A stretch of 58,104 nt of DNA, counting the filler, from Basidiobolus ranarum (lineage: Eukaryota), in assembly GCA_040143965.1 (NCBI GenBank). It is 3 parts of 3 records of this genome, joined end to end, with 100 filler letters (N's around TTAATTAATTAA, not from the genome) between each part and the next. Parts side by side here need not be neighbours in the genome. Positions count along the whole stretch, not along the records: positions 19,440 to 38,738 come from JASJQH010000254.1; 2 more parts are not named here. One strand, 5' to 3'. Of the stretch, positions 3,920-54,400 are shown piece by piece. Every line of letters begins with the position of its first letter. Position 1 is the first letter of the stretch. The notes under the pieces were generated by a model. It saw only the letters and a list, made by a program, of their open reading frames with translations. It searched no databases and was not told where the DNA came from. A program made the translations under genes and the position numbers.

Positions 3920-5497
3920 TTAACATTCGATACTATCATATTTTCTGAACAAGAAATAGAATATTCCTGTCATTACTCCCATTAGTCCAGTTTGAATACC
4001 GAATACATAAACGAAATTGGGATCATTGCTCCAAACAGCCAAGATTAATCCGATCAAACTACCACCACAATTGGTGAACAAGAACAGTGCTGTAACCACG
4101 GATTTGAGCTCAGGTGCGGCTTGTCGGAAGGCGAATTCAAGTCCAGTGACTGAAGCGAAGATCTCAGAAATAGAGATACCAATAAATGGGATGATCTGCC
4201 ACCAAATGGAAATATCATTGACTGGGTCTTGGCCCGCAGGCAATTTGCTCAAGTCTGTGAAGTTGTAGTAAGGCCCAGTCTTATATACTTGTGACTGAAG
4301 AACAGTGACAAAGACGAATGCTAGGGTAGCAATGGTGAAACCAATGGTGATGCGTGTGATGGGACCAAGACGACAGCCCATTCTTCTCAAGATTGGGAAA
4401 ACAACCGTGTCAAAAATAGGGATAGCAATCACCAGAACAAGACTGTTGACAAGGTTAAGCTGCTCAGGTCCACTGATGAATGAAGGGCGTTGCATAGTAA
4501 GGCCCATGTTGATGAAATTGTCCGACATGTTGTAGTACAGAGCCCAGTAGAATGGGTAGAATAAGAATACCAAGGATGCACGCAGAGTCTTCTTCAAGTC
4601 CTCCACAAAGGCATCATCCCACTCAAATCCATCAACTTTGGCGTAATCTAGCCAATGTTCAATGGCCCCATTGGTTTTACCATTGTCTAGTGGTGCCTTA
4701 CGATGGGAGAGGGCATATTTGATACATGTGTAGGTTTTAGAGAGCACGGTACCAGATGGAGGCTTAACATAATAGAATTTCTTGGCTGAAATGAAGACAA
4801 CCAGGCCCAGTACAAACATAATGGCTGGGAGAGAGTAAGCAAGTGGGTAGGATCCATAGTTGTTAGCGACAATTGGACAGATGAACTGACCCAACAGAGC
4901 ACCAAGGTTAATGGCCCAATAAAAGAATCGGAAAATTCTTTCAACAGTTAGTTGCGAGTCAATATACACTCCTGGGGTTTTAGTTGCAAAGATTCCCTCT
5001 TTGATTTGTTCAGCAGCAAAGGACGAAACATTGGATTTAATACCACCGGTACCAAAGGAGATGAATGCGTACAAAGCGATGATGTAGCCGATCACTCCAA
5101 AACTACCATCAAGAGAGGTTGGGAGAGCACTGAGTGCCAGAATGATCAAACCGACCATATAGAACATGGAGAATATGATAATGGTTTTGAACTTTCCTAG
5201 GTATCTGTCGGCAATAATGGCACCCAAAATGGTGGTGAAGTATGCCATGAACTGGAAGCCTCGGTTAACAGCAGTAGCGGTACCTTTGCTAAAGCCCAGC
5301 ATCTTCAGCATGTAGGGTTGGAATAGGAGAGAAGCTCCGTAAAAAGCAAATCGTTCGCATAACTCGGTGACGATGATAAACCAAGCAGCGATAGGAACCT
5401 TTCCAGCAACACGAAGTTTAATGTCTTCAGGATTGGGCTGGCCCTCTACTTCGTAATTAGCTTCTGTGCCCTGTTCAATCTTTTTCTCTTCGCTCAT
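3920..5497 (-). CDS. PTR2: Proton-dependent oligopeptide transporter (POT/PTR family), copy 1
   Basis: 525-aa ORF with ELCERFAFYG (ExxERF), GTGGIKSNVS, FYWAINLGAL and GLEFAFRQAAPELKS motifs. Confidence 0.93.
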   Translation of the reverse strand: MSEEKKIEQGTEANYEVEGQPNPEDIKLRVAGKVPIAAWFIIVTELCERFAFYGASLLFQPYMLKMLGFSKGTATAVNRGFQFMAYFTTILGAIIADRYLGKFKTIIIFSMFYMVGLIILALSALPTSLDGSFGVIGYIIALYAFISFGTGGIKSNVSSFAAEQIKEGIFATKTPGVYIDSQLTVERIFRFFYWAINLGALLGQFICPIVANNYGSYPLAYSLPAIMFVLGLVVFISAKKFYYVKPPSGTVLSKTYTCIKYALSHRKAPLDNGKTNGAIEHWLDYAKVDGFEWDDAFVEDLKKTLRASLVFLFYPFYWALYYNMSDNFINMGLTMQRPSFISGPEQLNLVNSLVLVIAIPIFDTVVFPILRRMGCRLGPITRITIGFTIATLAFVFVTVLQSQVYKTGPYYNFTDLSKLPAGQDPVNDISIWWQIIPFIGISISEIFASVTGLEFAFRQAAPELKSVVTALFLFTNCGGSLIGLILAVWSNDPNFVYVFGIQTGLMGVMTGIFYFLFRKYDSIEC

Positions 5498-6865
5498 GTG
5501 GATTGATTACTAAGTGTGTCAATGGATGTAACCAATTTGTTCTAAATTTCAAACAGGGCTCTGATGTTTCTTTTATATGGCAAAAACGGACGAAAGAAAG
5601 AAAGGTCGACATGGAATATTTGAGTGTAGTATAATTAAATTTAATGATAAGAATATTCTTTCCAATTTAGGTAATATAATCCAAATATCCCCGCATTTAG
5701 TATTAGATTTGTAGATTTGAATAAGATCGATATACTGGAATGAAACACGACCGTGAGTTTTGATAAGCATGAATTGAGCTACCATATATAGCTAGATATC
5801 GGTTTGATTAAATGGTTGTGAAACATGATGAGCCCAAACTCTTGGCAACAATCAGATCATGATTATCCTTATGGTATAAATGTGTTGGTCAATCCAAATG
5901 TAATCCATATTGTTAAAATCACAAACATTTGTTTTAGGTTAGATTGATATGATGTAGACAAAAGCAGTACATTAACAGATTTCTCGGACAATATTACTGA
6001 CAACGAAAAATTTGTTTTGTTTTATTTGGCTACTTTGGTGGCATGGGCCCATGTATGTAGTTTGAGTGGTATCTAAGATGGCAACTTCTTCCATATGAAT
6101 CTGAGACTTCGGGATCTTGTTTGTTAGTACACTGTGGAAACTGAGAAAGATAGTTATAATGTCCGTTCGATCAGCTGTATTTGGTCAAGATGAGTGAAAC
6201 CTGCCAGGATATGCTCAGCTTCTCCTTAACTTCAATTGGCAACTCTGGTGGTCATGCAACTACTAGTAACGGCATGGAATGCATTTAGCCGAATAAGCAG
6301 TATACTCACCAAAACGATACCCGTCTTCTTGAAAGACAATTGATGTTTACACGAGGAATTTCCTAACTTTGATAGAACCAGAGATACATTTATGTTATAT
6401 ATATAATGCATGACGTATTCAAGTTTTCAGGGCCTGACATGAATCAAATAGAAGAATTCGAAGTAACTATTAACGCAAAAATTCGGTAACTTATAATATA
6501 TGAATAAAACATTACAAGCTCCGAAAATAGTATCACTCATGAGTTCAAGTACCAAGCATTGCTACATGAGAAATTATAATCGCACATCATATATTATCTA
6601 ACAAAACTAATGGTAATATCACTAAAGCCGATGTGGATTACGTCAATACATTGATAATTTTCAAATTTTAGGGATATAATATATTGGCAGCAATATTAGA
6701 ACACAAAAGCTAATGTAAACAATAAATCGTCACCAATTTCAATATTGATTCTGTCAGAATTTAAGAACTAGTGATCTCGTAATGTTAGGAAGAGTTTATT
6801 GCGTATTTATACAGTGGATAATATATGTAAGTGATGAATACAATACATGAGATGAAGGTAATTTT

Positions 6866-8443
6866 TTAGCATTCAATACTATCATATTTTCTGAACAAGA
6901 AATAGAATATTCCTGTCATTACTCCCATTAGTCCAGTTTGAATACCGAATACATAAACGAAATTAGGATCATTGCTCCAAACAGCCAAGATTAATCCAAT
7001 CAAACTACCACCACAATTGGTGAACAAGAACAGTGCTGTAACCACGGATTTGAGCTCAGGTGCTGCTTGTCGGAAGGCGAATTCAAGTCCAGTGACTGAA
7101 GCGAAGATCTCAGAAATAGAGATACCAATAAATGGGATGATCTGCCACCAAATGGAAATATCATTGACTGGGTCTTGGCCCGCAGGCAATTTGCTCAAGT
7201 CTGTGAAGTTGTAGTAAGGCCCAGTCTTATATACTTGTGACTGAAGAACGGTGACAAAGACGAATGCTAGGGTAGCAATGGTGAAACCAATGGTGATGCG
7301 TGTGATGGGACCAAGACGACAGCCCATTCTTCTCAAGATTGGGAAAACAACCGTGTCAAAAATAGGGATAGCAATCACCAGAACAAGACTGTTGACAAGG
7401 TTAAGCTGCTCAGGTCCACTGATGAATGAAGGGCGTTGCATAGTAAGGCCCATGTTGATGAAATTGTCCGACATATTGTAGTACAGAGCCCAGTAGAATG
7501 GGTAGAATAAGAATACCAAGGATGCACGCAGAGTCTTCTTCAAGTCCTCCACAAAGGCATCGTCCCACTCAAATCCATCAACTTTGGCGTAATCTAGCCA
7601 ATGTTCAATGGCCCCATTGGTTTTACCATTGTCTAGTGGTGCCTTACGATGGGAGAGGGCATATTTGATACATGTGTAGGTTTTAGAGAGCACGGTACCA
7701 GATGGAGGCTTAACATAATAGAATTTCTTGGCTGAAATGAAGACAACCAGGCCCAGTACAAACATAATGGCTGGGAGAGAGTAAGCAAGTGGGTAAGATC
7801 CATAGTTGTTGGCGACAATTGGACAGATGAACTGACCCAACAGAGCACCAAGGTTAATGGCCCAATAAAAGAATCGGAAAATTCTTTCAACAGTTAGTTG
7901 CGAGTCAATATACACTCCTGGGGTTTTAGTTGCAAAGATTCCCTCTTTGATTTGTTCAGCAGCAAAGGACGAAACATTGGATTTAATACCACCGGTACCA
8001 AAGGAGATGAATGCGTACAAGGCGATGATGTAGCCGATCACTCCAAAACTACCATCAAGAGAGGTTGGGAGAGCACTGAGTGCCAGAATGATCAAACCGA
8101 CCATATAGAACATGGAGAATATGATAATGGTTTTGAACTTTCCTAGGTATCTGTCGGCAATAATGGCACCCAAAATGGTGGTGAAGTATGCCATGAACTG
8201 GAAGCCTCGGTTAACAGCAGTAGCGGTACCTTTGCTAAAGCCCAGCATCTTCAGCATGTAGGGTTGGAATAGGAGAGAAGCTCCGTAAAAAGCAAATCGT
8301 TCGCATAACTCGGTGACGATGATAAACCAAGCAGCGATAGGAACCTTTCCAGCAACACGAAGTTTAATGTCTTCAGGATTGGGCTGGCCCTCTACTTCGT
8401 AATTAGCTTCTGTGCCCTGTTCAATCTTTTTCTCTTCGCTCAT
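6866..8443 (-). CDS. PTR2: Proton-dependent oligopeptide transporter (POT/PTR family), copy 2
   Basis: Protein identical to copy 1; tandem duplicate offset by 2946 bp. Confidence 0.93.
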   Translation of the reverse strand: MSEEKKIEQGTEANYEVEGQPNPEDIKLRVAGKVPIAAWFIIVTELCERFAFYGASLLFQPYMLKMLGFSKGTATAVNRGFQFMAYFTTILGAIIADRYLGKFKTIIIFSMFYMVGLIILALSALPTSLDGSFGVIGYIIALYAFISFGTGGIKSNVSSFAAEQIKEGIFATKTPGVYIDSQLTVERIFRFFYWAINLGALLGQFICPIVANNYGSYPLAYSLPAIMFVLGLVVFISAKKFYYVKPPSGTVLSKTYTCIKYALSHRKAPLDNGKTNGAIEHWLDYAKVDGFEWDDAFVEDLKKTLRASLVFLFYPFYWALYYNMSDNFINMGLTMQRPSFISGPEQLNLVNSLVLVIAIPIFDTVVFPILRRMGCRLGPITRITIGFTIATLAFVFVTVLQSQVYKTGPYYNFTDLSKLPAGQDPVNDISIWWQIIPFIGISISEIFASVTGLEFAFRQAAPELKSVVTALFLFTNCGGSLIGLILAVWSNDPNFVYVFGIQTGLMGVMTGIFYFLFRKYDSIEC

Positions 8444-10127
8444 GTGAATTGATTACTAAGTGTGTCAATGGATGTAACCAATTTGTTATAAATTTCATTC
8501 ACGACTTGGACATTTCTTTTATACACGATCATATAGAACTATTACCTATGGCGAAAAGGGATAAATTAAGTAAGAAAGTTAAGTGAAAAGATAGTTTAAT
8601 TTGGGCGATTTAGTCGAAATATTTCCACATCAAATCTATTACGTTTGTAGAAACCATGGCCCAGAACATTAGCCATATTTGCAGAAACGTAACCTTAGTC
8701 TGCCATATAGAGTTTTATGAATTGATTGTTGCTAGTAACTTCATCTTATCTCTTCTGGCTTAACCCAATTCTTGGAAATTCTCAACACTTGACCAATAGA
8801 AATCGGTCAAAGCAAGAACCTCCTTACGATATAAATATATAGAAATAAATATTACGCAAGAAGGAAATGCTGTTGGCTGAATTAGGCAAGCGCAGATTGG
8901 CAGCTGACAACTACATCTGAATCAAAGTTAATTCTAAGTCTGTGTAGAAATCAGGGTTTTGTGCAAGAACTTGTTTGTAGCCAAATATTGTTCAATTGAT
9001 TAGTAAAACGGACAAATTGATCTGCATTGCTTTTATATTTGCCAAGACAGCTCTATATCTATCGTAGCCACAATTCAAGTATCTTAGAGAATGAGATTAC
9101 CCTGAAAGTGATTATGACAGAACAGCTCCCAGAACAGCTCCTAGATCATTACAGGTAATTGAGATTAGATAATGTTGAAGTTAACACGAACTCTTATTTC
9201 TTACTCTCATGCTAAGCATTATCTGCCCCTAGTTGAATGTGGGTTTTTTCTACTTCAGTTCGCAGATTCTGGCCCGACAAACAAGAGTGAAGATAACGAT
9301 GGCAAATCCAGCATAACGTCAATACTTTAGAGTGGATCTTTTCGACTAGTTTGATATGCGGAATAGGCATGGAGAGTACACATGGAGACCTTATGTTAAA
9401 TACCTGTCAGCAACTCATTGCTTCAAGACTGATTCAATCTTGTGCAACTACAAACTACAATAGATGTCAGAGTTATGATTAAGGGTGTGTTAGTATCACT
9501 CAATCTAAGGGTCTTTAGTCCAAGTATTAAACAGTACTGGACCTAACCTTAAGGAAATCCCAATTCTGACTCTGAATAAAGCTTAAACAACTTTAGTGAT
9601 CACTTGGGTTAGGGCTAGGTCACTAATCTTCTCAACATATCAGTCGCACACGCTTAGGTTGTAGGCCAATAACGGGGTAATCACTACCGAAACTCCAGAA
9701 CCTCTCATATCCTTTATAGCTTCACATCCATTCTGGCAATTAATGATTGGGCCACATAAACGTAGATCAGTATTTAACATATTATTAGGACACGTGTTGT
9801 AATAAATACCACTCAGCAGGACTGGGGTTAGGGTTGCCAGTAGGCAACTTGATCAACAATAAAACATCGAAATTTGGCCACGACTGGAGTTGCATGACAA
9901 TGATTGCTTTAATCATATATATCTTTTGTTATAATTAGCGACCATGGTTTGATTGTCCCCATAAGGGTTGAGAAATCAGCGTTGTCACTATATTTGTTCC
10001 CGAGGAAACACTATTATACAGCTTATTTTCCTTAGCTTGTTATTTATTATAACCCTATTACCTTATCCTCCCCTAAGTTTTTGTTCTGCTCATTAAACCT
10101 AATCTCTGCGTTTTCCCCAAGTTAAAT

Positions 10128-19339: not shown

Positions 19340-19439
19340 NNNNNNNNNNNNNNNNNNNNNNNNNNNNNNNNNNNNNNNNNNNNTTAATTAATTAANNNNN
19401 NNNNNNNNNNNNNNNNNNNNNNNNNNNNNNNNNNNNNNN
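19340..19439. other. Artificial contig-joining spacer (N44-TTAATTAATTAA-N44)
   Basis: Exactly 100 nt; the central 12-mer gives stops in all six frames; identical spacer at 38739. Confidence 0.95.
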
Positions 19440-19577
19440 ATCAATGCCAGTTATCAAAATAGATTCTTGCCAATGTATCTTCCTTGTCCAGTCTTGTCTT
19501 GTGGTCTACACCCAAGTACTCTCCTGCCTTCTAGCCTCTTGTTGTTGTTTCCAGTCCTTGTCCAGTTCCTTATTGTG

Positions 19578-19725
19578 ACAAGTTCAATATAGGACAACTA
19601 AACACTAAGCAATATATGACTATATAGGTGTTTAGGCAATGCTAACTTACACTCAATAAACCAATGAGTGAAAGTCACCAATTCTTCTAGTTCTCCAAAT
19701 TACCTTCAACAACCCCAAAATACTA
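19578..19725. repeat. Dispersed repeat family, copy 1 (hairpin + core + partial reversed arm)
   Basis: Core TATATGACTATATAGGTGTTTAGGCAATGCTAA shared with copies at ~38255, ~39010 and ~54146; CTCAATAAACCAATGAGTG... matches 54339 onward and the reverse complement of ~37955-38029. Confidence 0.75.
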
Positions 19726-21341: not shown

Positions 21342-24300
21342 ATGCTGTCGGCCAAGGCAATTCAAATAGAAAAGGATATTAATGTAGCGAGGTGTCAAGC
21401 CAATTGGCCCGCCATTCCTGAACTTGCTCGACGCTTCAAGAAACATAATCCTGCTGGGGCTGGTTAGTTGCTCAGTATAGCCCTACTTGACTTTCATTTC
21501 AAAAACCTAGTAACACGTCATTGCTAAATAATAGCTCTTTCGGAAACTATCCTTGCGGAGAGCGCCTTGGCTCATGCAGTAGAAAGACGTCCAACCCTAT
21601 CCTCAGATGCTTTCGATCAAGACGATGCTCATCACCTTACTCTACCCCATTTCCTTTCAGAGGCCGATGTTGCAGGGCCACGTGAGCAGTTACAAAAAGC
21701 ATCAAGCATTGCTGATGGTGATACAAAACAGGTTGGCTAGTATTTCGGATTATACCGTATTAAGGAAATGCATTTTGACTTCGCTTTCATAAAAGGATAC
21801 CAATATTGTTCTTGCTCGGACTTATTTTGAGACTGGCGCTTTCAATGAATGCTTAGAGGTTCTTAATAATATTCCTAATCAGTTTGAGAAAGCGAGTACC
21901 AGTGGATATAATGCTATTCTGCATTTGCAACGTCTTGTTATGAAGGGTAAGAGTGACTCAGGGGATAAAGCAACGGTGATGTTTACTCATGAAATATTTT
22001 AGGAATATCTCTGGAGAAGACTGATCGTATAGAAGAAGCGCTGAATGTATTCGACAATTTCTGCGAAGTAATTAGTAAGAATGAACTAGAAAGTGGATTA
22101 CCAGCGTTTCACTGGGTGGAAGAGGGGCTGTATAGAGTACCTTTTTTACGCTTGAGAATAGGGTAGGAAATTTTGTTTCTAGTCACATCAAAGCCCACTG
22201 CTCATAACAACTGTACACCTACGTTACCTCTTTAGCCAAACTGAGCAGGCTTTTGAAGCTTTTAGACTCTACTATGGCCAATCTGTCAAGTGGCCGCCTA
22301 TATTTAGAGTATACAAAAGATTGCACATACATCAAAGATTCATTATTCATCTCTCTGGAGCGTATCGTAAAGGAGATTACGTTCCACCCAACGTTCCTAT
22401 TTCATCGTCTTCCAAGTATGTAGTAGTCCAATTGAATAGTTGTGCGATGGATTCATAATTAATTAGAATTGTTTGAAGTAATCTCTCCACTGTGTACACT
22501 CCACAAACATTCCGCCAAGAAATGACAGCCGTCCATTCCATGTATGAAACACTCCTTTACTCCGTGACGACTTTCCCCAAGGCCGGACATGTGAATCAAA
22601 AGGTTTTGGATATGGTAGAACAAGCGATCAAAGATTGGGAAATCATGAATGTTGGAAATGCCTCACATACCCGACAGCTTGTTGATGTAAGAAAAATTCA
22701 TCTTAACCCTGTACTACAGCCCTGTTATTAAACACCCTTTTAGATTCTGTATCGTGCGACACAATATACCTTCAATTCTCCTCGTATCCTCCGTCACCTG
22801 GTTAAAAGCTTGTATGATCTGGGCGAATACTCTGAGGCAGAAATGGCCATCAGCTCATATGTGGAGTTAACGGAAAAGACGGCATTTGAGATTGAATGTA
22901 GAAGAAAGAATACCGCTTTCTCAGAAGATACCCTTTACGAAGGGCTTGAAGTGGAGGATGTGGTTGATAGAATCGAAGTATTAGTTATGGGAGCCACACT
23001 GAAAGCCAAGGAACTTCGAAAGGTTTCTTAACACTCTTTGACTGAATTAAGTTGACGATGTATTTGCTAATTTTAGTCGCATTAGTCACACGAAAGTTTG
23101 GAACTAGTTGAAAAACTACTAGTCCTCGCCATTCATCCCGAAGTTCCGCAAATCTTGAAGGCCAAATCCTGGCAAACAGCTGGATTAGTGTACGGTTTAA
23201 TCACTAATGAGGGTACGATTTGTTTGACACATAGATCAGCATCTCTAAAATCCATGTCATTCTAATCCATTTTTCTCCCACATGGTTCAGCTTTGGATCC
23301 CTCTGAACGACCCCGCCTACATCAAAAAGCACTAGATGCTTTAACAACGGCCATTAATTTCGATTCAACCGATTCCATGAGCTATTTCATGCTTGCACTT
23401 CAGCACGCGGATGGCCGAGAGATCGCACCCGCCATTGAGACTATCAAACAAGCTCTGGAACTTGACCCTAGTCATATTCCCTCATGGCATCTGCTAACCT
23501 TACTATTGTCCTCCCAAAAGGAATACGAGGCGGCACTTAAAATCTGCGAAGTTGGTCTAAGTGAATCCGAATGGGATCTTAGTGAGGGAGTAACCGAATA
23601 TCCTCCTAGCTTTACTGCGAATCGTCTTGAAGGAGAGGAATTCTGGGCCCTCAAGCTTACTCAAGCTGCGCTCTCGGAAGTATTGTATGGTACAGAACAT
23701 TCTTTACATCAATATGGATCTCTCTTTTATCTCTATGGTAAGATATTTGGGGAAAGCTCCGCTAATGGAAGCACCAGTGATTTTGGGAGCACCACAAGTC
23801 TTCGAAAAAAAGATATAGATGATCTTAGCCTACAAACCGATCCAAATGTTAGCTATTTAACCGTAAATAGTGCCCAAGAGAAGCGACTTCGCTCTAGCTC
23901 GTTGTCTACAAGACTTGGCAGAGGTTGGTATTTCTAAAGATCCATACTCTCCCACCACTTTAATAACCAAAAGATTCTCTCCGAATATAGGATCAGTTAG
24001 ATCAACCGTGCAATCCCAGAAAGGATCCACCTCCTCTATTCGTCTTAACTCCACATCACCTATTCCTGAAAAACCTAATGGTATGATGGCTAGACCTACG
24101 GAAAAACAAATCTCACGACGTCAGAATGCCATCTTCTTCCTCACGGAGCTATGGCTGATCTCCGCCTCAGCCTTTCGTCGCGCTGCCAAATATGATGATG
24201 TTAGACAAGCTCTGGATGAAGCCGAGAGTACTGACTCTGCTTCACCGGAAGTTTGGTGCCAGGTGAATATAGATTGAAAACTTCGATCCACCCAACATTG

Positions 24301-24719
24301 ACATTAAGCATTTTTCATGTATTGATAGTTTGGACAGCTATTCTTGGATCAGAACAATTGTGACTTGGCAACGATCAATTTCCAGAAAGCCTTGGCGTTA
24401 GATATTCATCATGTCCCTAGTATGGTTCAAATGGCACGCACTTACATTCAAACTGGGAACGTTGAAGCAGCGGAAGGTCTATTGGCTAGTGTTACCAAGG
24501 GAAAGGGATGGGATTGCGCAGAAGCCTGGTAAATACCCTATTTTTCCTTGTGATTACGCTTGTTATTCACTGCTTAAATCAATTTCTTTGCATAGGTTTT
24601 ATCTGGGCATCGTACTTAAATCTACTGGTCGCATAGCCAAAGCCAAGGAATGCTTCTGGTATGCTCATGATCTTGAAGAAACTAGACCCGTTCGGTCATA
24701 TAGTATTTTGCGAAGATGA
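21342..24719 (+). CDS. YPP1: TPR scaffold protein Ypp1/TTC7 (PI4-kinase Stt4 complex subunit), multi-exon
   Basis: N-terminal DINVARCQANWPAIPELARRFKKHNP; TPR region SWHLLTLLLSSQKEY; C-terminal GWDCAEAWFYLG...ECFWYAHDLEETRPVRSY. Confidence 0.8.
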
Positions 24720-25732
24720 ACTCTGGAGTAATTAATTGTACTTCAATGTCCCCCTTTTTTTGCTATATCAATACAAATCCTTCTAAATCTCCCCCTTTCC
24801 TCTTTTGTTATTTCGATTCAAATGGACCATTAGAAATCATTCTACCACACAAACTAATAAACAACCAGTGAATTTACCAGTACTCCCTCTAACTCATATT
24901 ACCAGGTGATATTTGAGCAAATAAGGAAATAATAGGGGGAAGGAACTCGTGCCAAAATGGAGATACTCATCCCCACATTTAAGACCCATACAGACCCTGA
25001 ACCTTTGGTTGAACTGGAAAATATTAGTCATGAAGGGTGGTGATTACTCAACATTGTATAAAAATAACTACCTGGATATCTAGATATCCTTGGTATTGAC
25101 CACGCGCTCCATTGTGATACCAACCAGACCTTATCGATATACTCGCTTGGATGAATATGAATGATCCACTTATTATTAATCAAAATAACGACCATGATGT
25201 GACATTGCCACGCCAAGAAGAATAGAATAGCGACTTGACTTAGTAGAGAGAACTTGTAGAATGAACCTTAGCTTCGAAACTACCTCTAAGTTGATTCTGT
25301 TTACCTATGGTGCAAGCGTATGGTGCAAGCATTGAGCAGTGTTCTGAGCTTTTGTATTCAACATTACTTGCATAATCTGATCACCGCTTTCTTAATTTGG
25401 TAAGAATAGTAATCTACAAGCTCTTGGAGTGATTTTCCAAGGTAACCACGCGATGCTGTAGCCCTGTACCGATACTGCACAGATACCCCACTTTCGAAAA
25501 AAAGAAATGATCATCATCGATAAGTGAAATATCTAAATTTGGACATGTCAACTTTTTGGGATCCACAACTGTGGCGTGTAGGGAAATTTTAGATATCAAA
25601 CCCTTTTTGACATGTTTTATGTGGTACTAATAAGACATCCTTCCTCTTTCAAAAGATTCCCTTGATACAACTGAGTGTTGGTATTTAAGGGTCCTTTCGC
25701 AATTTGTAGAGCCTTCTAAACATTTTGCTGTC

Positions 25733-25955
25733 ATGTCTGCTCATATCCGAACCTTCTCTCGGGTAGTTGCCGAAGTCCCCAAATATGCCGCTGTGAGCGC
25801 TCTGGTCGCCGGTGGTATCTGGTACACCAATCTCATTGTCAAGGGTCAAGAAGTATTCTATTTCAAGTGAGTAATCATGTCAATCGCAATCGCTATACAC
25901 ATCCTGATATATGTACTAATCCCATCTTATTAGTGCCACCAAGCAACGTGCTTAA
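25733..25955 (+). CDS. 51-aa single-TM microprotein, paralog A (2 exons: 25733-25866, 25934-25955); possible truncated NDUFA4/COXFA4 (MLRQ/B12D)-like
   Basis: MSAHIRTFSRVVAEVPKYAAVSALVAGGIWYTNLIVKGQEVFYFNATKQRA; intron GTGAGT...TACTAAT...TAG; aligns without gaps to paralog B. Confidence 0.75.
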
Positions 25956-26484
25956 ACTCCCGCCACTCCCACTCAAGCCCCTCCTCCTACATAGACTATA
26001 TTCAACCTAAAAATCCATTATAAAGAAACTTTATCAAAATCATGTGTCAATTATCTTACTATCAAAAAATGGGATCAAAACCCGTTTGGAATTGGAATAT
26101 TCAATGGAAATGAAATTAGTAATATTCAATCCACCCAACCCAAATCAGAATTATCCAAACGAAATAATTCCTTATCCGATAAACATCGTGATATTGGGGG
26201 ATGCCGGGGATTATCGGGGAGAGAAAGGGTGAGTTATTCGTGGAAATATTTCCACTTCATGGATCAAAATCAGTTCTTATTGAGTCATTTTGGCTCATGC
26301 TAAATATGGTTCAACTACATTCCAAATAAGAATGGGTACCAAATGGATCAAGAACGATCAATACACCAATGATACTTTGCATTTCCTATTCGAAACCGCA
26401 AAGACTGCTTTACTAAGTATATAAATATTGGGTGCTGTCAAAGCTAATACATTATCAACCAACTTTGATACTCATTCATCAATT

Positions 26485-26640
26485 ATGTTCGCCATCCGTT
26501 CTACTGCTTCCCGTGTTGTCTCCGCGGCTCCTAAATTCGTCGCTATCGGTGCTGGCGTTGCCGGTATTAGCTGGTATGCTAGTAAAATCGTTCGCGGTCA
26601 AGAGGTCTTCTATCTTAACTTCAAGAAGCAAACTGTATAG
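26485..26640 (+). CDS. 51-aa single-TM microprotein, paralog B (intronless); possible truncated NDUFA4/COXFA4-like
   Basis: MFAIRSTASRVVSAAPKFVAIGAGVAGISWYASKIVRGQEVFYLNFKKQTV; TATATAAATA at ~26419; codons biased to GCT/GCC/CGT/GGT/GTC. Confidence 0.78.
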   Translation: MFAIRSTASRVVSAAPKFVAIGAGVAGISWYASKIVRGQEVFYLNFKKQTV

Positions 26641-27711
26641 ATAGAACCACTCCGTTCCGACATTGTATATAGAACTTAGAAGATATTCATGGTCATCCTT
26701 GATACCTTATTCTATCATTTGAGTAACAATAAATAGACACCTAATTCCTCCATCAAATACGTTGCTTACCTTGTTGTTTGTTTGAAACTTTAGTGGAGGC
26801 ATATTCGTCCTTGATGAATACAGCTCCACATGCACCTTCAGTTAAATGATTACCTAGGTACTGCACCTCTTCAAAGACTGTATTCCTTTGGCCACAGTTC
26901 AGTGGAGATACTCAGGGTTTGTGTCCATCAGGATCATCAATTAGTGAATTTAAAAGAATCAATATCCACATTATCAGGACATGAAATATAGATTAATCCC
27001 AGGATATTCCGAAATCTTAAATTTTGTTGAAGTTCATGGATAATGACCCTAAGATAGCATTCGATGATGTATAAATTTAATAATAATAAATACCCTAACC
27101 CATGGAGTTGAGATAGAATATAGATCTAACGCAGGTCACGTGTTAAGAGTTATAAGCAGCATTGTATCTCCGAGTGCTCAAGTAATGAATGTTTGCTAAC
27201 TAGCGTTTCATAGTAAACAAACATACGTATTCAAGTATTTGTTGTGAAATGAGTGCATATATAGAGTGATCTATTCCCGTTCATGACGGTATTTTGTAGA
27301 GTAGTCTATTCCCTTTTCCATTCATCCTGAACAAGAGACATTGTTGGTGGATCATGTGACCGGATGTGATGTTGTATTTTCGGTTTACTTCTTTTAATTG
27401 GATGAATGATAGCTACGGCAATTTTACTAGTGACAACATCGTGATAGATCTATGAATTTATCTCCATAGATCCAATGAGCATATTCAAATGGCTATTAAT
27501 GTATATTAATTTCATGGTCATGTAATCGAGAGATCCGAGATTACATGTCCCTTGATTTAGACTAATACGAGGTTATACGTGAGGTTTCGACACCAACTCA
27601 TAGACCAGAAAATAGTCTCTACAGCCTGACTACCAAAGAAACTCCATTTATATAACCTTTATCACTTCTAAAAACCAATTTTCAGCTTTATCTTCGAGAA
27701 AGTTCACACAG

Positions 27712-30700
27712 ATGAACTTGCGTACACGAGGCTCGAGAATCAATAGCTGTTGGCTATTGATATTATTGATATACTCGTTAATCGCTTGTACTAGAGCGGG
27801 CGATGTAGCAGTCAGACTCACAAAGTTTCAAAACTCACCAACGAAACTTTTCTATTTTGAAGATTCTGGGGTAAGAAAATGGACTTTCTTGTGTAGTCAC
27901 TATTTATCAACTCGTAATGATACTTATAAAATAACCTCTTACTACTATCCTTAGGTAGTATTATTTCTGGACGCTACATCCAAAGTCGTTTATCGCTCAG
28001 CCAATGAGGGAGAGACCTGGGAGCCAGTTTCCAACATTCCTGACAAAGCTGCCGTTGAATTGTTCAGTCATCCGTATAATAAAGAAATGGTAAGAACTTG
28101 TCACACCTGGAGATGGTCCATTTCTCGTGTTATTTAAATTTTTGTCTTTAAAATAGGCTTTTGTGTTGACTGAAGGTGATACCCATTACGTCACTCAGGA
28201 TAAAGGTGCCTCTTGGTCTTCCTTTAAGACTCAACTTACTCCTTCTTGGAGTAATCAAGTGTTAGGTTTCCATGCTGAGAGAAATAAATACATTCTTTTC
28301 ACCGGTACTCGATGCGAAGACAAAGACTTTGGAAGAAGACAAATTTGTACTGATGAAGTATTGAAACTTGCTTTGGCTAATTCGCTAAATTCTATACTAA
28401 AACAAAATGATTGTTTATTTGATAGGTATATTACACTAAAGATGCATTTGCTACCTCACCTATTCTCTTGAGAAAAAATATCGCTAAATGTGTGTGGGGT
28501 AGATCAACTCCATACTTCCAAAACGTCCCCGAACAAATGACGCTATGCTTAGAGTACACTGGGGATGGAGCTATTGCCGATACGAATGATTTAAGATTGG
28601 TTCAAAGTGAGGACTATTTTCAAAGCTCTATGATTGTCAAGTTCAATGATGAAGCCAGAGGTATGGGAGGTGTAGTCGGTCTATCTATAGTTGAAAAATA
28701 CCTCATTGCTGCTCTGGTAAATAGAGTTTGTTGTTTTTTCTAAAGTGAACAAATCCTGATTTCGATTGCCTTCTTCATATAGAAGCACAAAGATTCCGAT
28801 GATATGAGTCTGTTTATTACTCAAGATGGTGTGGAGTGGGATATGGTTAGTAATTCAAAGAGTTCTATGTGATATCCTTCATGTGATTAATATATCCCGT
28901 TCTCACAGGCTAATATTCCAGTTCCAGAGGGCCTTAAACAAAATGTAAACAGATACTATTTTACTGATATACCTTGCACTTCAACCAATTAAACCTTTAT
29001 CTTATGCTTTTTCTAGGCTTACACTATACTAGAATCCTCTCCACATTCCCTCGTCATTGATGTTGTTACTTCTCCCTCTTCAGCTTTCGGGAGTCTATAT
29101 GTTTCCAATTCCAATGGAAGTTTTTATGCCAGTTCATTACCACATACCAATAGAAATAGCAAAGGTATTGTTGACTACGAAACAGTCCAAGGCGTAGAGG
29201 GGATTGTTCTATCCAATGTTGTATCAAACTGGAAAGAAGTTGAGAGAAGCCAATGGTCAGTTGACAAGAAACTGAAATCCATGATTTCCTTTGACAATGG
29301 TAAGAGAGATATTAAGTATGATTCAGCGTGGGAATTCTGATTGACTCTTTCTTCAGGTGGTCATTGGCGCTATTTAAAGCCACCCAGAGCTGATCTCCAA
29401 GGAAATTCATACCGTTGTACTGGAGAAGATACGGTACGTTTTAGAAACCATTTATCATGCTTAACCAAAGTGGGTGCTAATCTATTTGAATTTAGGCCGG
29501 AGATTGTAATCTGCATCTTCATTCCATATCCAGGCCTCGCAACTTCGGAAGAGTTTACTCTTCGATAGGTGCTCCAGGTATCTTAATGGGTGTCGGGAAT
29601 GTTGGTGCTTCTCTATTGGAGTATGAGGAGTGTGATACATTCTTGAGTGATAACGGTGGATTGACTTGGAAGGAAGTGGCCAAAGGTGCCCATAAGTATG
29701 AGATGGGCGATACTGGATCTTTACTCGTCATGATTGATGATGAAGCATATACTGATAAGATAACTTATAGTACTGACAGAGGTCAAAACTGGTTAGTTTA
29801 CATTTACGTTGAACTTGTATATTGTGCAGGTCTAATATCAATTTATATTTGTGAATAGGACGGAGTTAGATTTGAAGGTCAGTATTAGAGCTCGGATGCT
29901 TACCACGGATCCAGAATCCACCACGTCCAGTTTTCTTCTATTTGGTTCGACTGCTAGGACGGAAACGGAGAAATATGCGATGTTACAGCTCGACTTTGAT
30001 AATCTACTATCTAGAAAATGTGTTTTCGAGGAGGGTAACACCAATGGAGATTTTGAAAAATGGATTGCTCGTAATCTCGAAGATGGGCCAGATTGTATCA
30101 TGGGGCATACTACAGCTTTCTGGAGAAGGAAGGCTGATGCTCAATGCTATGTAGGAGAGAAGTTTAAAGATCCTAAAATGGTTTTGGATAATTGCCCTTG
30201 TGAAGAAGAGGATTTTGAATGCGATTACAATTTTATCAGAAACTCTGATGGTACTTGCGTTCTTGCTGGTCCGGAGAAAATCCCCCGTGGCCAATGCAAA
30301 AACAATGGTGATAAATATTTGGCCTCATCTGGATACCGTAAGGTTCCTGGTAATACTTGCGATCCCGAGAAGGGAAAGTCTCTTGATAAACCTGTAGAGA
30401 GACAGTGCCCCTCCGAAGGAAGTCTACCTGATGGTGATGGCCCAAGTGGAAAAATTCAACACAAGTCAACCATTTTCAACGACATGGTCAACCGGTTTTA
30501 TTACTTTGTCGATTCCCTTGTAGTTTTAATTCATACGGAGAACGGTCAGGTCTGGAGAAGTTCCAACGAAGGGACTACTTGGACGCGAGTTCTACCCGAA
30601 CAAGGGGGAGTCATATTCTTGGTCATGCACGAGTGGGATAACTATCGTGCGTATCTTCTGACTGATGATGGTAAGCTGTGGGCTACTACAGACCGTGGAG

Positions 30701-33700
30701 AGACATTTAAAGAGATCGAAGTCCCAATATTTCCCAACAAGATGAACCTACCTCTTCTCGATTTCCATCCAGATGAGCCTGACTGGCTACTCTTCATTGG
30801 TAGTACCGATTGTCCAGGTTGTCACAGTGAAGCATATTTCTCGACAAACCATGGACGTGATTGGACTCTGATAGAAACATTCGCTCAAAAGTGTATCTTC
30901 GAAAAAAGTACCAAGTTTGTCAAAGCACCTAAAGAAAGTATCCTTTGTTCATCTTTCAAGAACAAAGCCCCTGAAAATGATCAGGAAGAATTAATACGTA
31001 CTCCAGACTCCTCCAATCCTTTACAGCTCATTTTTATCAACGGAAAAGAGCGCAAGGTGGTTTTCGAACCTATCGTAGAATTCGCCATTTCAGAAGAGTT
31101 CCTGATTGTTGCTAAACAAGATGGAGGTGACTTGACCCTTTATGTATCCGTAGATGGAGAGAATTTCGCTGAAGCTGTTTTCCCCCCTAACGCTCGTGTT
31201 GATAAGAACTCTTTTACCGTTTTACAATCAAACACCGGTTCCATATTCCTGGATGTCTTCCGTTCGACTAGTCGTGGTGCTGAATTTGGAACTTTGTATG
31301 TCTCTAATTCAAATGGAACATATTATACTCAAGTTCTGAAAAACACCAATCGAAATAACAATGGAGTTGTAGATTTCGAGAAAATGCAAGGGATTAAAGG
31401 AACCATCTTGGCAAACGAGGTGGTAAATGCTGATGCTTTAGGTGGACAGTATAACATCAAGAAGAAAATCAGGACAGTGATATCTATGGATGACGGAAGT
31501 TCCTGGCATCCACTGCAAGCTCCCAAAGTGGATTCCTCCAACAACCCAATCGACTGTCCCAACTCTGAAGAATGTTATTTGAATCTTCACAGTAGAACCG
31601 ATATCATCTCGTCAGATGCGATCTTCAGCGTCTCTTCTGCTGCTGGACTGATGATGGGTGTAGGTAACGTTGGCCCTTCTCTTTTACCCTACGAGCAAGG
31701 AAATACGTATATCACTCGAGATGGTGGTCATACATGGAAGGAAATTAGACGTGGAAAAAGCTTGTATGAATTCGGAGATTCTGGTGCCATCTTGGTTGTA
31801 GTTGACGACGAGAAGCCTACTGACAGGCTCCTATATAGCTGGAATTATGGCCAGACCTGGGAAACATATGTATTCTCGGATGATTTGATAAGAGTTACTG
31901 CCATTACTACCGAGCCGAAATCCACTAGTTTGAAATTTTTGATCCTTGGTATTACACAGCTTACACAGAGCAGAAATCCTCTACAAGTCGTTACTTCCAT
32001 TGATTTCTCCACTCTAGAACCTCGTAAGTGTTCTTTTGACGAGTCTGATCCGTCCAAGAATGACTTTGAGCTCTGGAATCCCGGTGGTCAGGCCAAGTGT
32101 TTGCTTGGGGAAGAAACCGAATACTGGCGTCGTAAGGAAGATCGCATGTGTTACATAGGAGATGTTTACGGAGAACCTAAAGTTAAACAAACTAGTTGTG
32201 AATGTACCGACCTAGATTATCAATGTGACTACAATTTCTGGCGCAATAGCGAAGGGAAATGTGAGTTATATGGGGTTGACCCTGATAAGCCGCATGATTG
32301 TCCAGTCGATAAAAAATACCTGGGTAGCTCTGGATACCGTAAGATTTCCACTAGCAAATGTAAAGGTGGAATCAACAAAGAAAAAAAGGTAGAAAAGGAA
32401 TGTGGCGCAATAGGAGAAATTCGCTCTACCATCACTTCTTTTGATAGTGAAGTGGTTGATTACAACTATTTCAAGAAATCCGACCATGTTCTGATGAGAA
32501 CCAAAAATATGGGATTATGGCTTAGTGAAAACGAAGGATATACGTGGACTGACTTGATGAAAGATCATGATGCGCGCATTGTCGATATTTACATGCACCC
32601 TTATTCGGAAGACGTAGTACGTATAAATCAAATGAGTCTCACTTGTTATCTCACCTAATTATAAATCTTTTCACTTGTAGGCTTATTTCATCACTAAAGA
32701 GAAGTTACTTTACTACACCACCGACGAAGGCCGTAATCTTGTGAAATTGGAAGTTCCCCTTTACCCTAACAACTTCGACATCCCTGTACTCAGCTTCCAT
32801 CCTCAGCATCCAGAATGGCTTATTTACGTAGGAGAAAGTGGATGTGACTCCATCATCTCTCTTCATTGTCACCCTGAGGCTTTCTACAGTACTAATAACG
32901 GCCTCATATGGGAGCCTCTTCTGAAAAATGTGAGGAAGTGTGTTTGGGGTAAAACTGATAAATTCACCAAAACCCCTGAAGCCACCATCTTCTGCGAATT
33001 ATTCCCAGAGAATATCAACGGTAAACATGCGAATGTACCAGTCACCCTGGTTAGAAGTGATGATCATTTCGAGACCAAGAAAGTACTGTTTGAAAAGTCG
33101 GTCGGATTTGCTATCTTTGAGGAGTACATGGTTGTCTCTCAGATTGACCCAGCTGAGCAAGGAATGCTACTTCAAACAAGTCTTGATGGTGAAACATTCG
33201 CCTTGGCTCAGTTCCCTGGAGATAACTCAGCGATTCATCCAGCCTACACTATCCTCGAATCCAACACTCACTCCATGTTCCTTCATGTCAGTACAAGTGT
33301 GCAGACTAAATCTGAATATGGTACTATTTTCAACTCAAATGCTAATGGTACCTACTTTACCACTTCACTTGAGAATGTCAATCGCGATGAAAGGGGCCTT
33401 GTTGATTTCGAGAAAATGGCCGGGATCGATGGCATCGCCATGGTAAATCAAGTCACTAACCCCAATGAAGCTAAATCTGGTAACAAGAAGAAAATTCGTT
33501 CAGTCATTACTCATGATAATGGTCGTACATGGAAGACGCTTAAGCCACCGGCAACCGACTCGAAAGGCCAAAAAGTTACATGCCAAGGTGAAGCTTGCTC
33601 ATTGAACATCCATAGCTACACAGAACGTCAGGATCCACAGAACATCTTTAGCTCATCATCCGCTGTAGGTTTGATGATGGCAGTTGGTAATATTGGAGAT

Positions 33701-34747
33701 CATTTGACTGACTACACTGATGGTGACACGTTCTTATCTCGTGATGCCGGTAGAACATGGAAAGAGATCCGTAAGGAGGCGCATATGTATGAGTTTGGTG
33801 ACCATGGAGCTATTCTTATCATTGCGAATGACGAAGAGCCCACTGATCACATCTCCTACTCCTTCGATGAAGGTGCCACTTTCAAAGATTATTACTTCGC
33901 CAAAGCAAATGAAAAAATTCGACTCAGCACCATCGCCATTGAACCACAATCTACAAGTCGTAAATTCTTGATTTTCGGGAAAACTGATAACTTTTTCTCT
34001 AAACAGGTGGTGATACAAATTGATTTCAATGGATTGAACATGCCTAAATGCGTCTTGAATATCAGTGATCCCAAACATGATGATTTTGAAATGTGGAATC
34101 CAGCGGAAGAAAAATGTATGTTTGGACGTGAAGTTGAGTACTATCGTCGCTTACCTGAGAAGGTCTGCTATATAGGGGACAAATTCAAGAACCCGCAGAA
34201 AGTTGTGAAGAACTGTACTTGTACTGACGCCGATTTCGAGTGTGATTACAATTTCGTACGTTCCAACGGTAAATGTGTTCTTGTTGACGGTGCGAAGCCG
34301 TTGACGAGCGAATGTACAGGTGGTGCGAGATACTACCAGGTTTCTTCTGGCTATCGCAAAATGCCAATTTCTAGTTGCGAAGGTGGGAACGATCTATCCA
34401 AACCCATCGAATATCGTTGCCCTAACTCGGGACTTAGTGGGGGGGCCATCACTGCGTTGGTGCTAATCCCTCTGCTGTGTGTGGCATGTGTTTTCTTTAT
34501 CATATTTAGAAGATATGGTACCATTCCTACTATCCGACTTCCTGATCGTTTTGGTAGATATTTCGCTCGATGCCATCTACCTAATATTCGTTTACCTCAC
34601 ATTCCTACACCGCCATTTGTGTCTGCTCTTCTTGCTAAGATTCCTTTTATCGGGCATAGTCGTTCTGGTTACACTCAGGTTCAACAAAATGAGGAACCAT
34701 TTGATGTACTTCTGGATGACTATGACTCCGACGATATGGATGTCTAA
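27712..34747 (+). CDS. VPS10: Vacuolar protein sorting receptor Vps10/Pep1 (sortilin family) with three luminal Vps10 modules, 11 exons
   Basis: Signal peptide; Asp-box repeats (SxDxGxTW); three copies each of NRxxxGxVD(Y/F)E, MxVGN(V/I)G and Cys-rich 10CC blocks (CDYNF, SGYRK); TM segment; tail with GYTQV and an acidic dileucine-like motif. Confidence 0.92.
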
Positions 34748-37954: not shown

Positions 37955-38294
37955 AGTATTTGGGAGCCTGTTGGAAGTGGTTTGGAGAAATAGAGAAATT
38001 GGTGGTTTTCATTTACTGATTTATTGAGTTGTATGTTAACATTTATAGTTTTGTCAAGATGTACACTAACTACCATGTAGAATGTGTTAAGAAATGTACC
38101 AGGGACATCTGTACAAAGTTTTGGGCCTCTAGCACAGGTTTGAAAAATCTATATATCTGAGAACTTCCAGGTTGGTGTCAATATTCTAAGTAAATTCCTC
38201 TTGAGAATAATGGGTATATCTTAATGCAATATAAGATAAATAAATACTAAGCTATATATGACTATACAGCTGTTTAGGCCATGCTAATTTCAAC
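37955..38294. repeat. Dispersed repeat family, copy 2 (arm + hairpin + core)
   Basis: TAGAATGTGTTAAG...AAAGTTTTGGGCCTCT...GAATAATGGGTATATC followed by TATATGACTATA...GCTAATTTCAAC; matches the other three copies. Confidence 0.8.
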
Positions 38295-38738
38295 AAATAG
38301 AAGAAGAAGGCCAATTAGATACATTTATCACTGGGTATTTTAAGTCAATTATTATTGATCAACAACATCATTTTATTAATGATTTTCATTATCCCAATGG
38401 TGATATCTTTGAAATCCATGATGAATAGATGTCATGATTCTGATCTTGGCATACTCATCCACTGCAAATGGAGTCCTTCTATTTTTAGACTATGACATCA
38501 TATTTGCTGTGCCATCCCTTCTTGGCAAACTTGTGCTAGTTCATCCAGGTTATCTTATGTGGAAGTCTTGTTCTTTAGAATATTCCATGAAACCTAATCA
38601 ATCATATCATCCCACAAATAGTATATTTCTGCCAAGACCTTCCATGGAAGGTCACCTGATCAACCTTATATCATCCCCCTTTGTATTGATCCTTGTAGTC
38701 CCCAACACTCCAACACTTGAACTTGCCACAGTATATTC

Positions 38739-38838
38739 NNNNNNNNNNNNNNNNNNNNNNNNNNNNNNNNNNNNNNNNNNNNTTAATTAATTAANNNNNN
38801 NNNNNNNNNNNNNNNNNNNNNNNNNNNNNNNNNNNNNN
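38739..38838. other. Artificial contig-joining spacer (N44-TTAATTAATTAA-N44)
   Basis: Identical in design to 19340-19439. Confidence 0.95.
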
Positions 38839-38854
38839 AGATTTAATCAGACTA

Positions 38855-39048
38855 ACGTGTAGAATGTGTTAAGGGAGGTCCCAGGAACATGTGTGCAAAG
38901 TTTGGGGCTTCTTTGAAGAATCTATATATCGGAGAACTAAGCAAATTCCGATATCGAATAATGGGTGATATCTTAGTATTTAGTTATCCTATATTTCACT
39001 GGGCTATATATATGACTATATAGGTGTTTAGGCAATGCTAATTTCAAC
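38855..39048. repeat. Dispersed repeat family, copy 3 (arm + hairpin with inverted loop + core)
   Basis: TAGAATGTGTTAAGGGAGG...GAATAATGGGTGATATC then TATATGACTATATAGGTGTTTAGGCAATGCTAATTTCAAC, at the contig start. Confidence 0.8.
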
Positions 39049-40149
39049 AATATTCACAGTTGGTACAAATCCTACTAAATATCGCCATTTAGTACTACTA
39101 ATTAAAACTTTATATCTACGTCCGTATTCTACACATATTCCAGTCAGACCACAAGTCAGCGTAATATAAGTCTAAACTAAGCCTAATCTCCGCTATCCTC
39201 TGAGGCTCATTGCCAATGCCATAACATATAATGATGCCAATCCTGCTCCTTCTTCGTCAATTAGAAAGAAAAACCCTAAGCCACCAGGTTTTACCTGGCC
39301 CTTTACCGCCATTAGTAACAGTTCACTTATGAAGTGATGGACTACATGAAGGCCAACTTTCTTTGTATAACTTGCTTCATTGATTCCTTTTTTATCTCTG
39401 TACTATAGGGAGCTAGATGGTATTAGTATATCTTTTCATTCCTTAAAAATCAAACACTTTATATCACCTTTGATATACTCTATATGTGATGCTCAATAAA
39501 GAAAGTAAGAACCTTACCCTAAGCTAGGATATGTAGCAGCTAGTATTGCTAACTTGTGCCAGAAAATTAATCACATCTGCGATAATTCCATGTTAGCTGA
39601 TTTTAGCTTCACAGATGATTGAAATGCTGTCATGAATAAGCATCTCTATAATCATCACTCTTCAATTTCTTTGTATTGTTCCATTCAGCCAAGGTTTTAC
39701 AGTAGGGGTGTACCATGAACACCTCCTATATGAATGTAAGCCTTAGGTACTGGGTGTCAGAATTATTGATTTGAAAGAACTGATAAGTACAATGTCCATA
39801 GATTGTGTACTTACCATGTATAGAGCAGAAGCTTCTCTTTTTTATATTTAATATGTCTGATCTGGATTGGTGCTCGATTAATCTTTATTGCACTAATTCT
39901 CCAAATATTGACAATGACGTTAGTGGCCTATTGTTTTTCATGATAATCACTGCTTTTGGTGCTAAATGGTATTATCTCTGCCAAGTTTTCAAACGAGACT
40001 TGTCTAACAACTAGCCAGTTATTTGGCCCCTAGCAATGATGCTGATGGCAAGATCATAGTTCAGTATTGAAGTTAAGAAACATACTTTATTACTATTAGA
40101 AGAAGAATTTACTCAACTCTTGACGTCGTAGCGTTTAAATAAAAGCCAT

Positions 40150-54110: not shown

Positions 54111-54400
54111 GTTAGTGAAATATGGAACAACTAAATACGAAGTTATATATGACTATAGAGATGTTTAGGATATGTTAATTTCAACCCGATATCACTCGCT
54201 ATTTTCAAAAGGAATTTACTTAAAACATTGTGAATACTTGTCTTAGAGGCCCCAAATTTTGCACACATGATCCCAGGATCTTCCTTAACACATTCTTCAC
54301 GTTTGATTACTTACCTAACTATAAATATCAGCTTTCCACTCAATAAAACAATAAGTAATAACCACCAATACTTCTAGTTCTCCAAAACTTTTATCAAACC
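54111..54400. repeat. Dispersed repeat family, copy 4 (hairpin + core + reversed arm)
   Basis: TATATGACTATAGAGATGTTTAGG...TAATTTCAAC followed by the reverse complement of the arm of copies 2/3 (GATATCAC...GAGGCCCCAAATTTTGCACACATG...CTTAACACATTCT...CTCAATAAA). Confidence 0.8.

Follow-up and report, generated by a model that had tools for sequence, protein, structure and literature searches.

A tandem pair of 51-residue proteins in Basidiobolus ranarum, probably a tail-less variant of the COXFA4/B12D family

The window analysed here is a stretch of 58,104 nucleotides of Basidiobolus ranarum DNA composed of three joined contigs, with N runs bearing a TTAATTAA linker at 19340-19440 and 38739-38839, and the two genes under study, A and B, are located on the plus strand of its middle contig (C254). 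Exon 1 of gene A (25733..25866) holds codons 1-44 and two bases of codon 45, and its product contains a basic N-terminus, Pro16, a hydrophobic helix and a WY..KGQEVFY core. It is followed by a 67-nt GT-AG intron (25867..25933) with donor GTGAGT, a branch-like TACTAAT and acceptor TTAG, and then by exon 2 (25934..25955), which supplies codons 45-51 and the stop codon. Gene B (26485..26640) is a single exon encoding 51 aa, and its ATG lies 752 bp downstream of that of A, in agreement with the distance of about 750 bp given in an earlier note on this DNA. The same note had read A as spliced; we regard the intron as real because splicing preserves the gapless alignment with B and yields a protein letter-for-letter identical to NCBI KAK9765548.1, a hypothetical protein of Basidiobolus ranarum. 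The B protein is present in NCBI and UniRef, and the NCBI entries for both genes are automatic gene calls, which are no proof of expression. Judged by eye from the translations, the upstream neighbour (23266-24719, plus strand) is a YPP1/TTC7-like TPR protein and the downstream neighbour (28157-34747, plus strand) is a multi-domain Vps10-like receptor; on the same by-eye reading, no respiratory genes adjoin the pair.

The two proteins, of 51 aa each, align without gaps at 27 of 51 identities, as the earlier note had stated, and this level was reached by none of 100,000 shuffles, whose maximum was 16. Differing codons are used at 14 of the 27 identical residues, and Nei-Gojobori estimates gave a saturated pS of 0.78 against a pN of 0.32, which points to a pair that is old and constrained as protein. 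By this comparison of their codons, A and B are shown to be real, constrained protein-coding genes.

Other features attributed to the pair beforehand, namely TATA-like boxes, biased codons and one transmembrane helix, held only in part. The box of gene B is good (TATATAA, 26418..26424, plus strand, 67 nt before the ATG), whereas that of gene A (TATTTAA, 25682..25688, plus strand, 51 nt before the ATG) is weak and a consensus match only. Fourfold codons ending in C or T number 27 of 29 in B, a clear bias, 23 of 29 in A, a mild one, and 16 of 28 in a third paralogue, C, which has no bias; seven long genes from the window give a baseline of 0.62-0.66. In its codon use, B is similar to the full-length COXFA4 gene and to Cox12. 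The regions that flank A and B on either side have no alignable motif in common. A perfect 16-bp palindrome (26240..26255), preceded by a G-rich stretch, was read from the sequence 245 nt upstream of gene B and may be a chance occurrence. As for the helix, a hydrophobic segment is present but weaker than had been implied, the best 19-residue Kyte-Doolittle mean being 1.43 in A and 1.54 in B versus 1.98 in the full-length COXFA4 of the genome, and 1.29-1.54 across A, B and C versus 1.7-2.0 in other B12D members. AlphaFold2 modelled B, from a three-sequence alignment, as one helix with low confidence (pLDDT 66.6, pTM 0.29). The N-terminus of these proteins contains two Arg and zero or one acidic residues and has a hydrophobic moment of 0.48-0.83, features that fit a mitochondrial inner-membrane location and are suggestive only.

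Genome searches with B, C and A as queries each returned the same four places (4 of 4 candidates): A, B, paralogue C (L002:1486-1647, contig C1903, 53 aa) and a copy of C (L004:1-129, contig C1621) that is cut by the contig start. C and its copy are identical at 123 of 126 coding bases, and their 3' flanks are unrelated directly after the stop codon, a pattern that may represent recent duplication, conversion or an assembly effect. A TATATAA also overlaps the first codons of C. Between B and C, pS was 0.70 and pN 0.30, and 15 positions are invariant in A, B and C, including P16, K17, W30, Y31, G38, E40, V41, Y43 and N45. Among 5.8 billion proteins, the query B gave one candidate, B itself, and the A/B/C profile gave two of four candidates, A and B, with none outside the genome. 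A search of 1.84 billion representatives returned B, A and one bacterial SH3-repeat protein (E 9e-4), which we judged to be a chance match and rejected as a relative. None of 227 pattern matches in metagenome contigs and none of 52 in viral contigs were confirmed as relatives. The best reading is that the subfamily is lineage-restricted, found in the B. ranarum genome alone among the databases searched, that is, protein databases and metagenome and viral contigs, in which genes this short often go uncalled.

The earlier note had likened the pair to MLRQ/B12D proteins, a link that standard searches did not recover and targeted profile tests supported. With E up to 10, neither B nor C, nor A as exon 1 or as the spliced product, matched any Pfam family, and a PF06522 search of the genome returned eight places, of which four exceeded the gathering cut-off of 21.5 bits and none lay at the A, B or C loci. 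PDB searches with B and with the A/B/C profile did not find NDUFA4, and the best ESM Atlas scores (0.81 and 0.80) were at chance level, with no B12D match and nothing at 0.9. Such a failure of standard searches, together with the lack of any relative outside the genome in the databases searched, is what would favour an orphan family of Basidiobolus microproteins without kinship to B12D, in which the resemblance of the small-residue helix and of the WY..RG pattern arose by chance or convergence. We set these negative searches against a profile of 11 fungal B12D proteins, comprising the full-length COXFA4 of the genome and 10 others (11 of 13 search candidates). Aligned to it by hhalign, A/B/C gave a probability of 94.3 and a P of 9.5e-8 over 31 gapless columns, which becomes about 0.002 when multiplied by 24,736 Pfam families. 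The profile scored B at 18.1, C at 14.0 and A at 11.3 bits, making B the subfamily member nearest to B12D/COXFA4, and none of these scores was reached in 5,000 full shuffles or in 5,000 segment-wise ones. Among 7,394 hydrophobic 51-residue windows, the best unrelated one scored 10.5, and one higher window was a piece of B. Unrelated PDB chains reached up to 14.4 bits, among them the single-helix proteins NDUFA1 (13.6) and Qcr9 (13.3), so that only B exceeds this ceiling alone; A and C, taken singly, fall within the decoy range, which again is in keeping with an orphan family.

The comparison was also made in the opposite direction. A profile of A/B/C only scored the 11 full-length B12D proteins at 6.0-22.9 bits, and seven of the 11 exceeded 14.0 bits, the best match among 177,635 PDB sequences; one unrelated locus reached 15.5 bits in two overlapping windows. 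In the shuffle control, 0 of 3,000 shuffles reached the score for four of the five proteins tested, and 1 of 3,000 did so for the genome's own full-length COXFA4. Identity to full-length B12D, without gaps, averaged 9.1 of 28 core columns, exceeding the 6.3 of 28 found between a short B12D type accepted by Pfam and the full-length proteins. A gapless match in the same register in both directions that holds up under composition-preserving shuffling, with P from about 1e-7 to 2.5e-9, argues against an orphan family, as does the fact that B12D had been named before the test, and we consider that explanation improbable. On these profile comparisons, the homology of A/B/C with COXFA4 is well supported for the N-terminal helix, the Pro, the transmembrane helix and the WY..RG.EV-aromatic core. 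Members of B12D can thus drop below Pfam detection and remain annotated as hypothetical.

Another small single-pass respiratory subunit, Qcr10/UQCR11, was also considered, of which A/B/C might be divergent copies. It is similar in length, and in the genome's own Qcr10 a Pro precedes a Gly/Ala-rich helix. This identity was rejected as extremely improbable: PF09796 finds one locus elsewhere and PF08997 two weak loci, none of them at A/B/C, and the A/B/C profile gives the genome's Qcr10 -0.7 bits.

With the full-length type, A/B/C share the Pro, the small-residue helix, WY, (R/K)G, (D/E/Q)V and the aromatic residue at identical spacing. The start of the helix is different, as E-x-x-P-I/L is invariant in the 11 fungal B12D proteins, whereas in A/B/C the Pro is kept in 3/3, Lys comes next in 3/3, and there is no Glu three residues earlier. 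The NPxPW region had been described as missing, and indeed neither the A/B/C proteins nor any of the six reading frames of 25871-27700 contains it. Three short proteins above the Pfam cut-off also lack NPxPW, which is therefore unnecessary for Pfam membership. Through the alignments, human Phe19, Tyr32 and Trp45 correspond to F18 (in B; Y in A and L in C), Y31 and Y43, respectively. A and B stop 8 residues past Y43, a position after which the full-length protein continues for 36; they thus retain the core that faces the membrane and lack the tail of about 35 residues that faces COX6B/Cox12. No hidden exon near B restores the C-terminal tail. With a cryptic exon adding W-R-H-I (donor GTATAG at 26635, acceptor at 26793), B would score 20.0 instead of 18.1 against B12D; this exon was rejected, since 80 of 382 random flanks did as well. 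Beside full-length fungal COXFA4 (KAK9763877.1; Syncephalis KAI8057897.1), A/B/C have a basic N-terminus of 15-18 residues in common, but they measure 51-53 rather than 78-97 aa, lack both NPxPW and the C-terminal K-x-x-x-V-N region, carry P-K in place of E-x-x-P-I, and have a weaker helix and sub-Pfam detection. Because they fall below the Pfam cut-off and are without E-x-x-P-I and NPxPW, we have filed A/B/C as a derived variant and not as standard members.

The genome has one locus for full-length COXFA4 (KAK9763877.1, 82 aa, NPYPW), which scores 54.5 bits with PF06522 and matches human NDUFA4 in the PDB. It also has a second short B12D type of 53-58 aa without NPxPW, which presumably resembles yeast Min8, at 12 places (12 of 12 candidates of a search with one member, two cut by contig ends) on contigs C462, C2591, C3453, C7049, C446 and C9143 (L006-L012, L113-L123). 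Of four members tested, three score above the PF06522 cut-off, and NCBI carries annotations for several of the type. Contigs C462, C2591 and C3453 hold three or more each; on each of them, three near-identical tandem copies are spaced about 0.9-1.1 kb apart, possibly as one broken tandem array. This type was seen to be a larger expansion than the A/B pair. A/B/C fall outside it, with an hhalign probability of 7.5 and 4.7 of 28 core columns identical, compared with 9.1 for the full-length type. In a tree of 33 columns, both short types were monophyletic in separate clades (support 99 and 100), A/B/C could not be placed within B12D (support 69), and the A/B/C branch was long, at about 1 substitution per site. 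The B12D-type places in the genome amount to 17 (1 full-length + 12 + 4), a figure that does not equal copy number because the assembly has 13,754 contigs and some places may be alleles. Tail truncation in the B12D genes of B. ranarum is not unique to the A/B pair. With a full-length COXFA4, two more copies of the A/B/C type and 12 places of the second type, swapping is possible in principle and the truncation is less singular. A literature search covering titles and the starts of abstracts (mostly open access) found no description of truncated fungal members, and Basidiobolus was unmentioned among the matches listed for NDUFA4, B12D, MLRQ and COXFA4. A/B/C probably represent a new, truncated form of an established family, which has undergone an unusual expansion in this genome.

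Short or multiple members of the family occur in other lineages. Yeast Min8 (YPR010C-A), called an NDUFA4 homologue in the available text of PMC7582755, is a non-essential, 72-aa, single-pass, N-in/C-out protein that associates with complex IV and forms cross-links with Cox12 (PMC7338081). Min8 and the second Basidiobolus type are both short B12D members; like A and B, those of Basidiobolus are without NPxPW and in tandem. Plant B12D, as described for rice OsB12D1, is likewise multigene, with six genes in rice, mitochondrial, and with one flooding-induced member; the abstract of that report mentions no truncated type (PMC4159805), and the comparison of plant B12D with A/B/C is one of description. 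Vertebrates possess an exchange circuit of NDUFA4, NDUFA4L2 and C15orf48 (PMC7793259; see also PMC8654286), and the human set (with C15orf48 as MOCCI, in the MISTR circuit) is similar to that of B. ranarum in that several family paralogues are present in one genome. A and B also have aromatics at the positions of Phe19, Tyr32 and Trp45 of human NDUFA4 (PMC12894743). NDUFA4 (81 aa) and C15orf48 (83 aa, PMC7793259) are full length, whereas A/B/C are tail-less. Stress induction and exchange have been shown in mammals.

In human complex IV, according to the available text of PMC12894743, the NDUFA4 N-terminus is on the matrix side, the helix runs parallel to COX1 and adjoins helix 2 of COX2, the C-terminus contacts COX6B1, and Phe19, Tyr32 and Trp45 are resolved in the map; NDUFA4 joins the complex last, in competition with HIGD2A, and its loss halves activity. 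COXFA4 has also been reported in a jakobid (PMC7050145, text in part). The S. pombe orthologue was unseen in its complex IV map (PMC9935853), so that genuine homology does not by itself imply a stable subunit.

Considering these data, we propose a plausible model. A full-length fungal COXFA4/B12D gene would have been duplicated, and its copies would have diverged and shed the last ~35 residues to give A/B/C. A and B, and by extension C, are probably single-pass proteins of the mitochondrial inner membrane, with the N-terminus in the matrix and the 8-residue basic tail in the intermembrane space. Their helix might sit in, or compete for, the COXFA4 groove beside Cox1 and Cox2 of complex IV, while the tail-less protein would be unable to contact Cox12/COX6B, so that A/B/C would accompany the retained full-length COXFA4 in an accessory or placeholder role rather than replace it fully; we put this part forward tentatively, as a real possibility that falls a little short of probable. 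A complex prediction combining B, a metagenome fungal Cox1 stand-in, and the genome's Cox2 and Cox12 exon 1 scored 0.00 in both runs, in which the alignments were unused and the controls unfolded, and counts neither for nor against the model.

A different course of evolution would be that the proteins are derived from B12D but re-purposed, with the tail lost, Lys17 gained and complex IV binding gone, leaving them with another inner-membrane partner or as free membrane peptides. The long branch (about 1 substitution per site), the loss of E-x-x-P-I and NPxPW, the new invariant K17 and N45, and the retention of the full-length gene, which leaves the copies free to drift, all agree with it. However, P16, W30, Y31, G38 and V41, invariant in A/B/C, are invariant or nearly so in full-length B12D, as expected if the surface is still used, and the 72-aa Min8 of yeast still associates with complex IV (PMC7338081, text in part); re-purposing is thus rather unlikely in our estimation. 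Overall, we favour, with some reserve, an old, lineage-restricted, tail-less COXFA4-derived subfamily whose members would work where COXFA4 sits on complex IV. Condition-dependent exchange of A/B with full-length COXFA4, which the earlier note had suggested by analogy with mammals and for which the flooding-induced rice gene offers a second analogy, is doubtful.

There is no settled account of how COXFA4 and its paralogues tune cytochrome c oxidase or of what the intermembrane-space tail contributes, and natural 51-residue versions consisting of the core only would serve as minimal reagents for the question of the tail. A fungus with three B12D types would also show paralogue diversification beyond vertebrates and plants. 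Basidiobolus inhabits the guts of amphibians and reptiles. We speculate, with little confidence, that COXFA4 has expanded into three structural types, one full-length and two independently short, and that the 51-aa type replaces the full-length subunit at the complex IV groove under conditions such as low gut oxygen, uncoupling it from Cox12; this would be a fungal counterpart, by way of truncation, of the NDUFA4/NDUFA4L2/C15orf48 exchange. As far as their sequences tell, A/B/C amount to one divergent branch, in a single species, of a family already known.

Several further observations concern putative partners and the rest of the window. The genome has two Cox12/COX6B paralogues (L025 on C6 and L026 on C479) of differing codon bias, a difference that may matter for the choice of partner by the B12D types. 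A Cox2 frame that looks intact in the standard code (L018, G000:C5188:71-886, minus strand) has very G/C-rich, homopolymer-like flanks, and its last dozen residues are unlike those of other fungal Cox2; it may be a mitochondrial fragment or a nuclear copy. Cox1 is represented in the assembly by short fragments only. In the window, two genes judged by eye to be PTR2/POT-like peptide transporters (3920-5506 and 6866-8452, minus strand) lie at a spacing of 2,946 bp and have 528-residue frames that are identical, as a result of either very recent tandem duplication or assembly duplication. Dispersed repeats of 53-78 nt, 62-86% identical and in direct and inverted orientation, were seen at 19581-19699, 38057-38300, 38839-39054 and 54114-54386, three of the four sites being near contig ends, and this repeat family may be a small non-autonomous mobile element.
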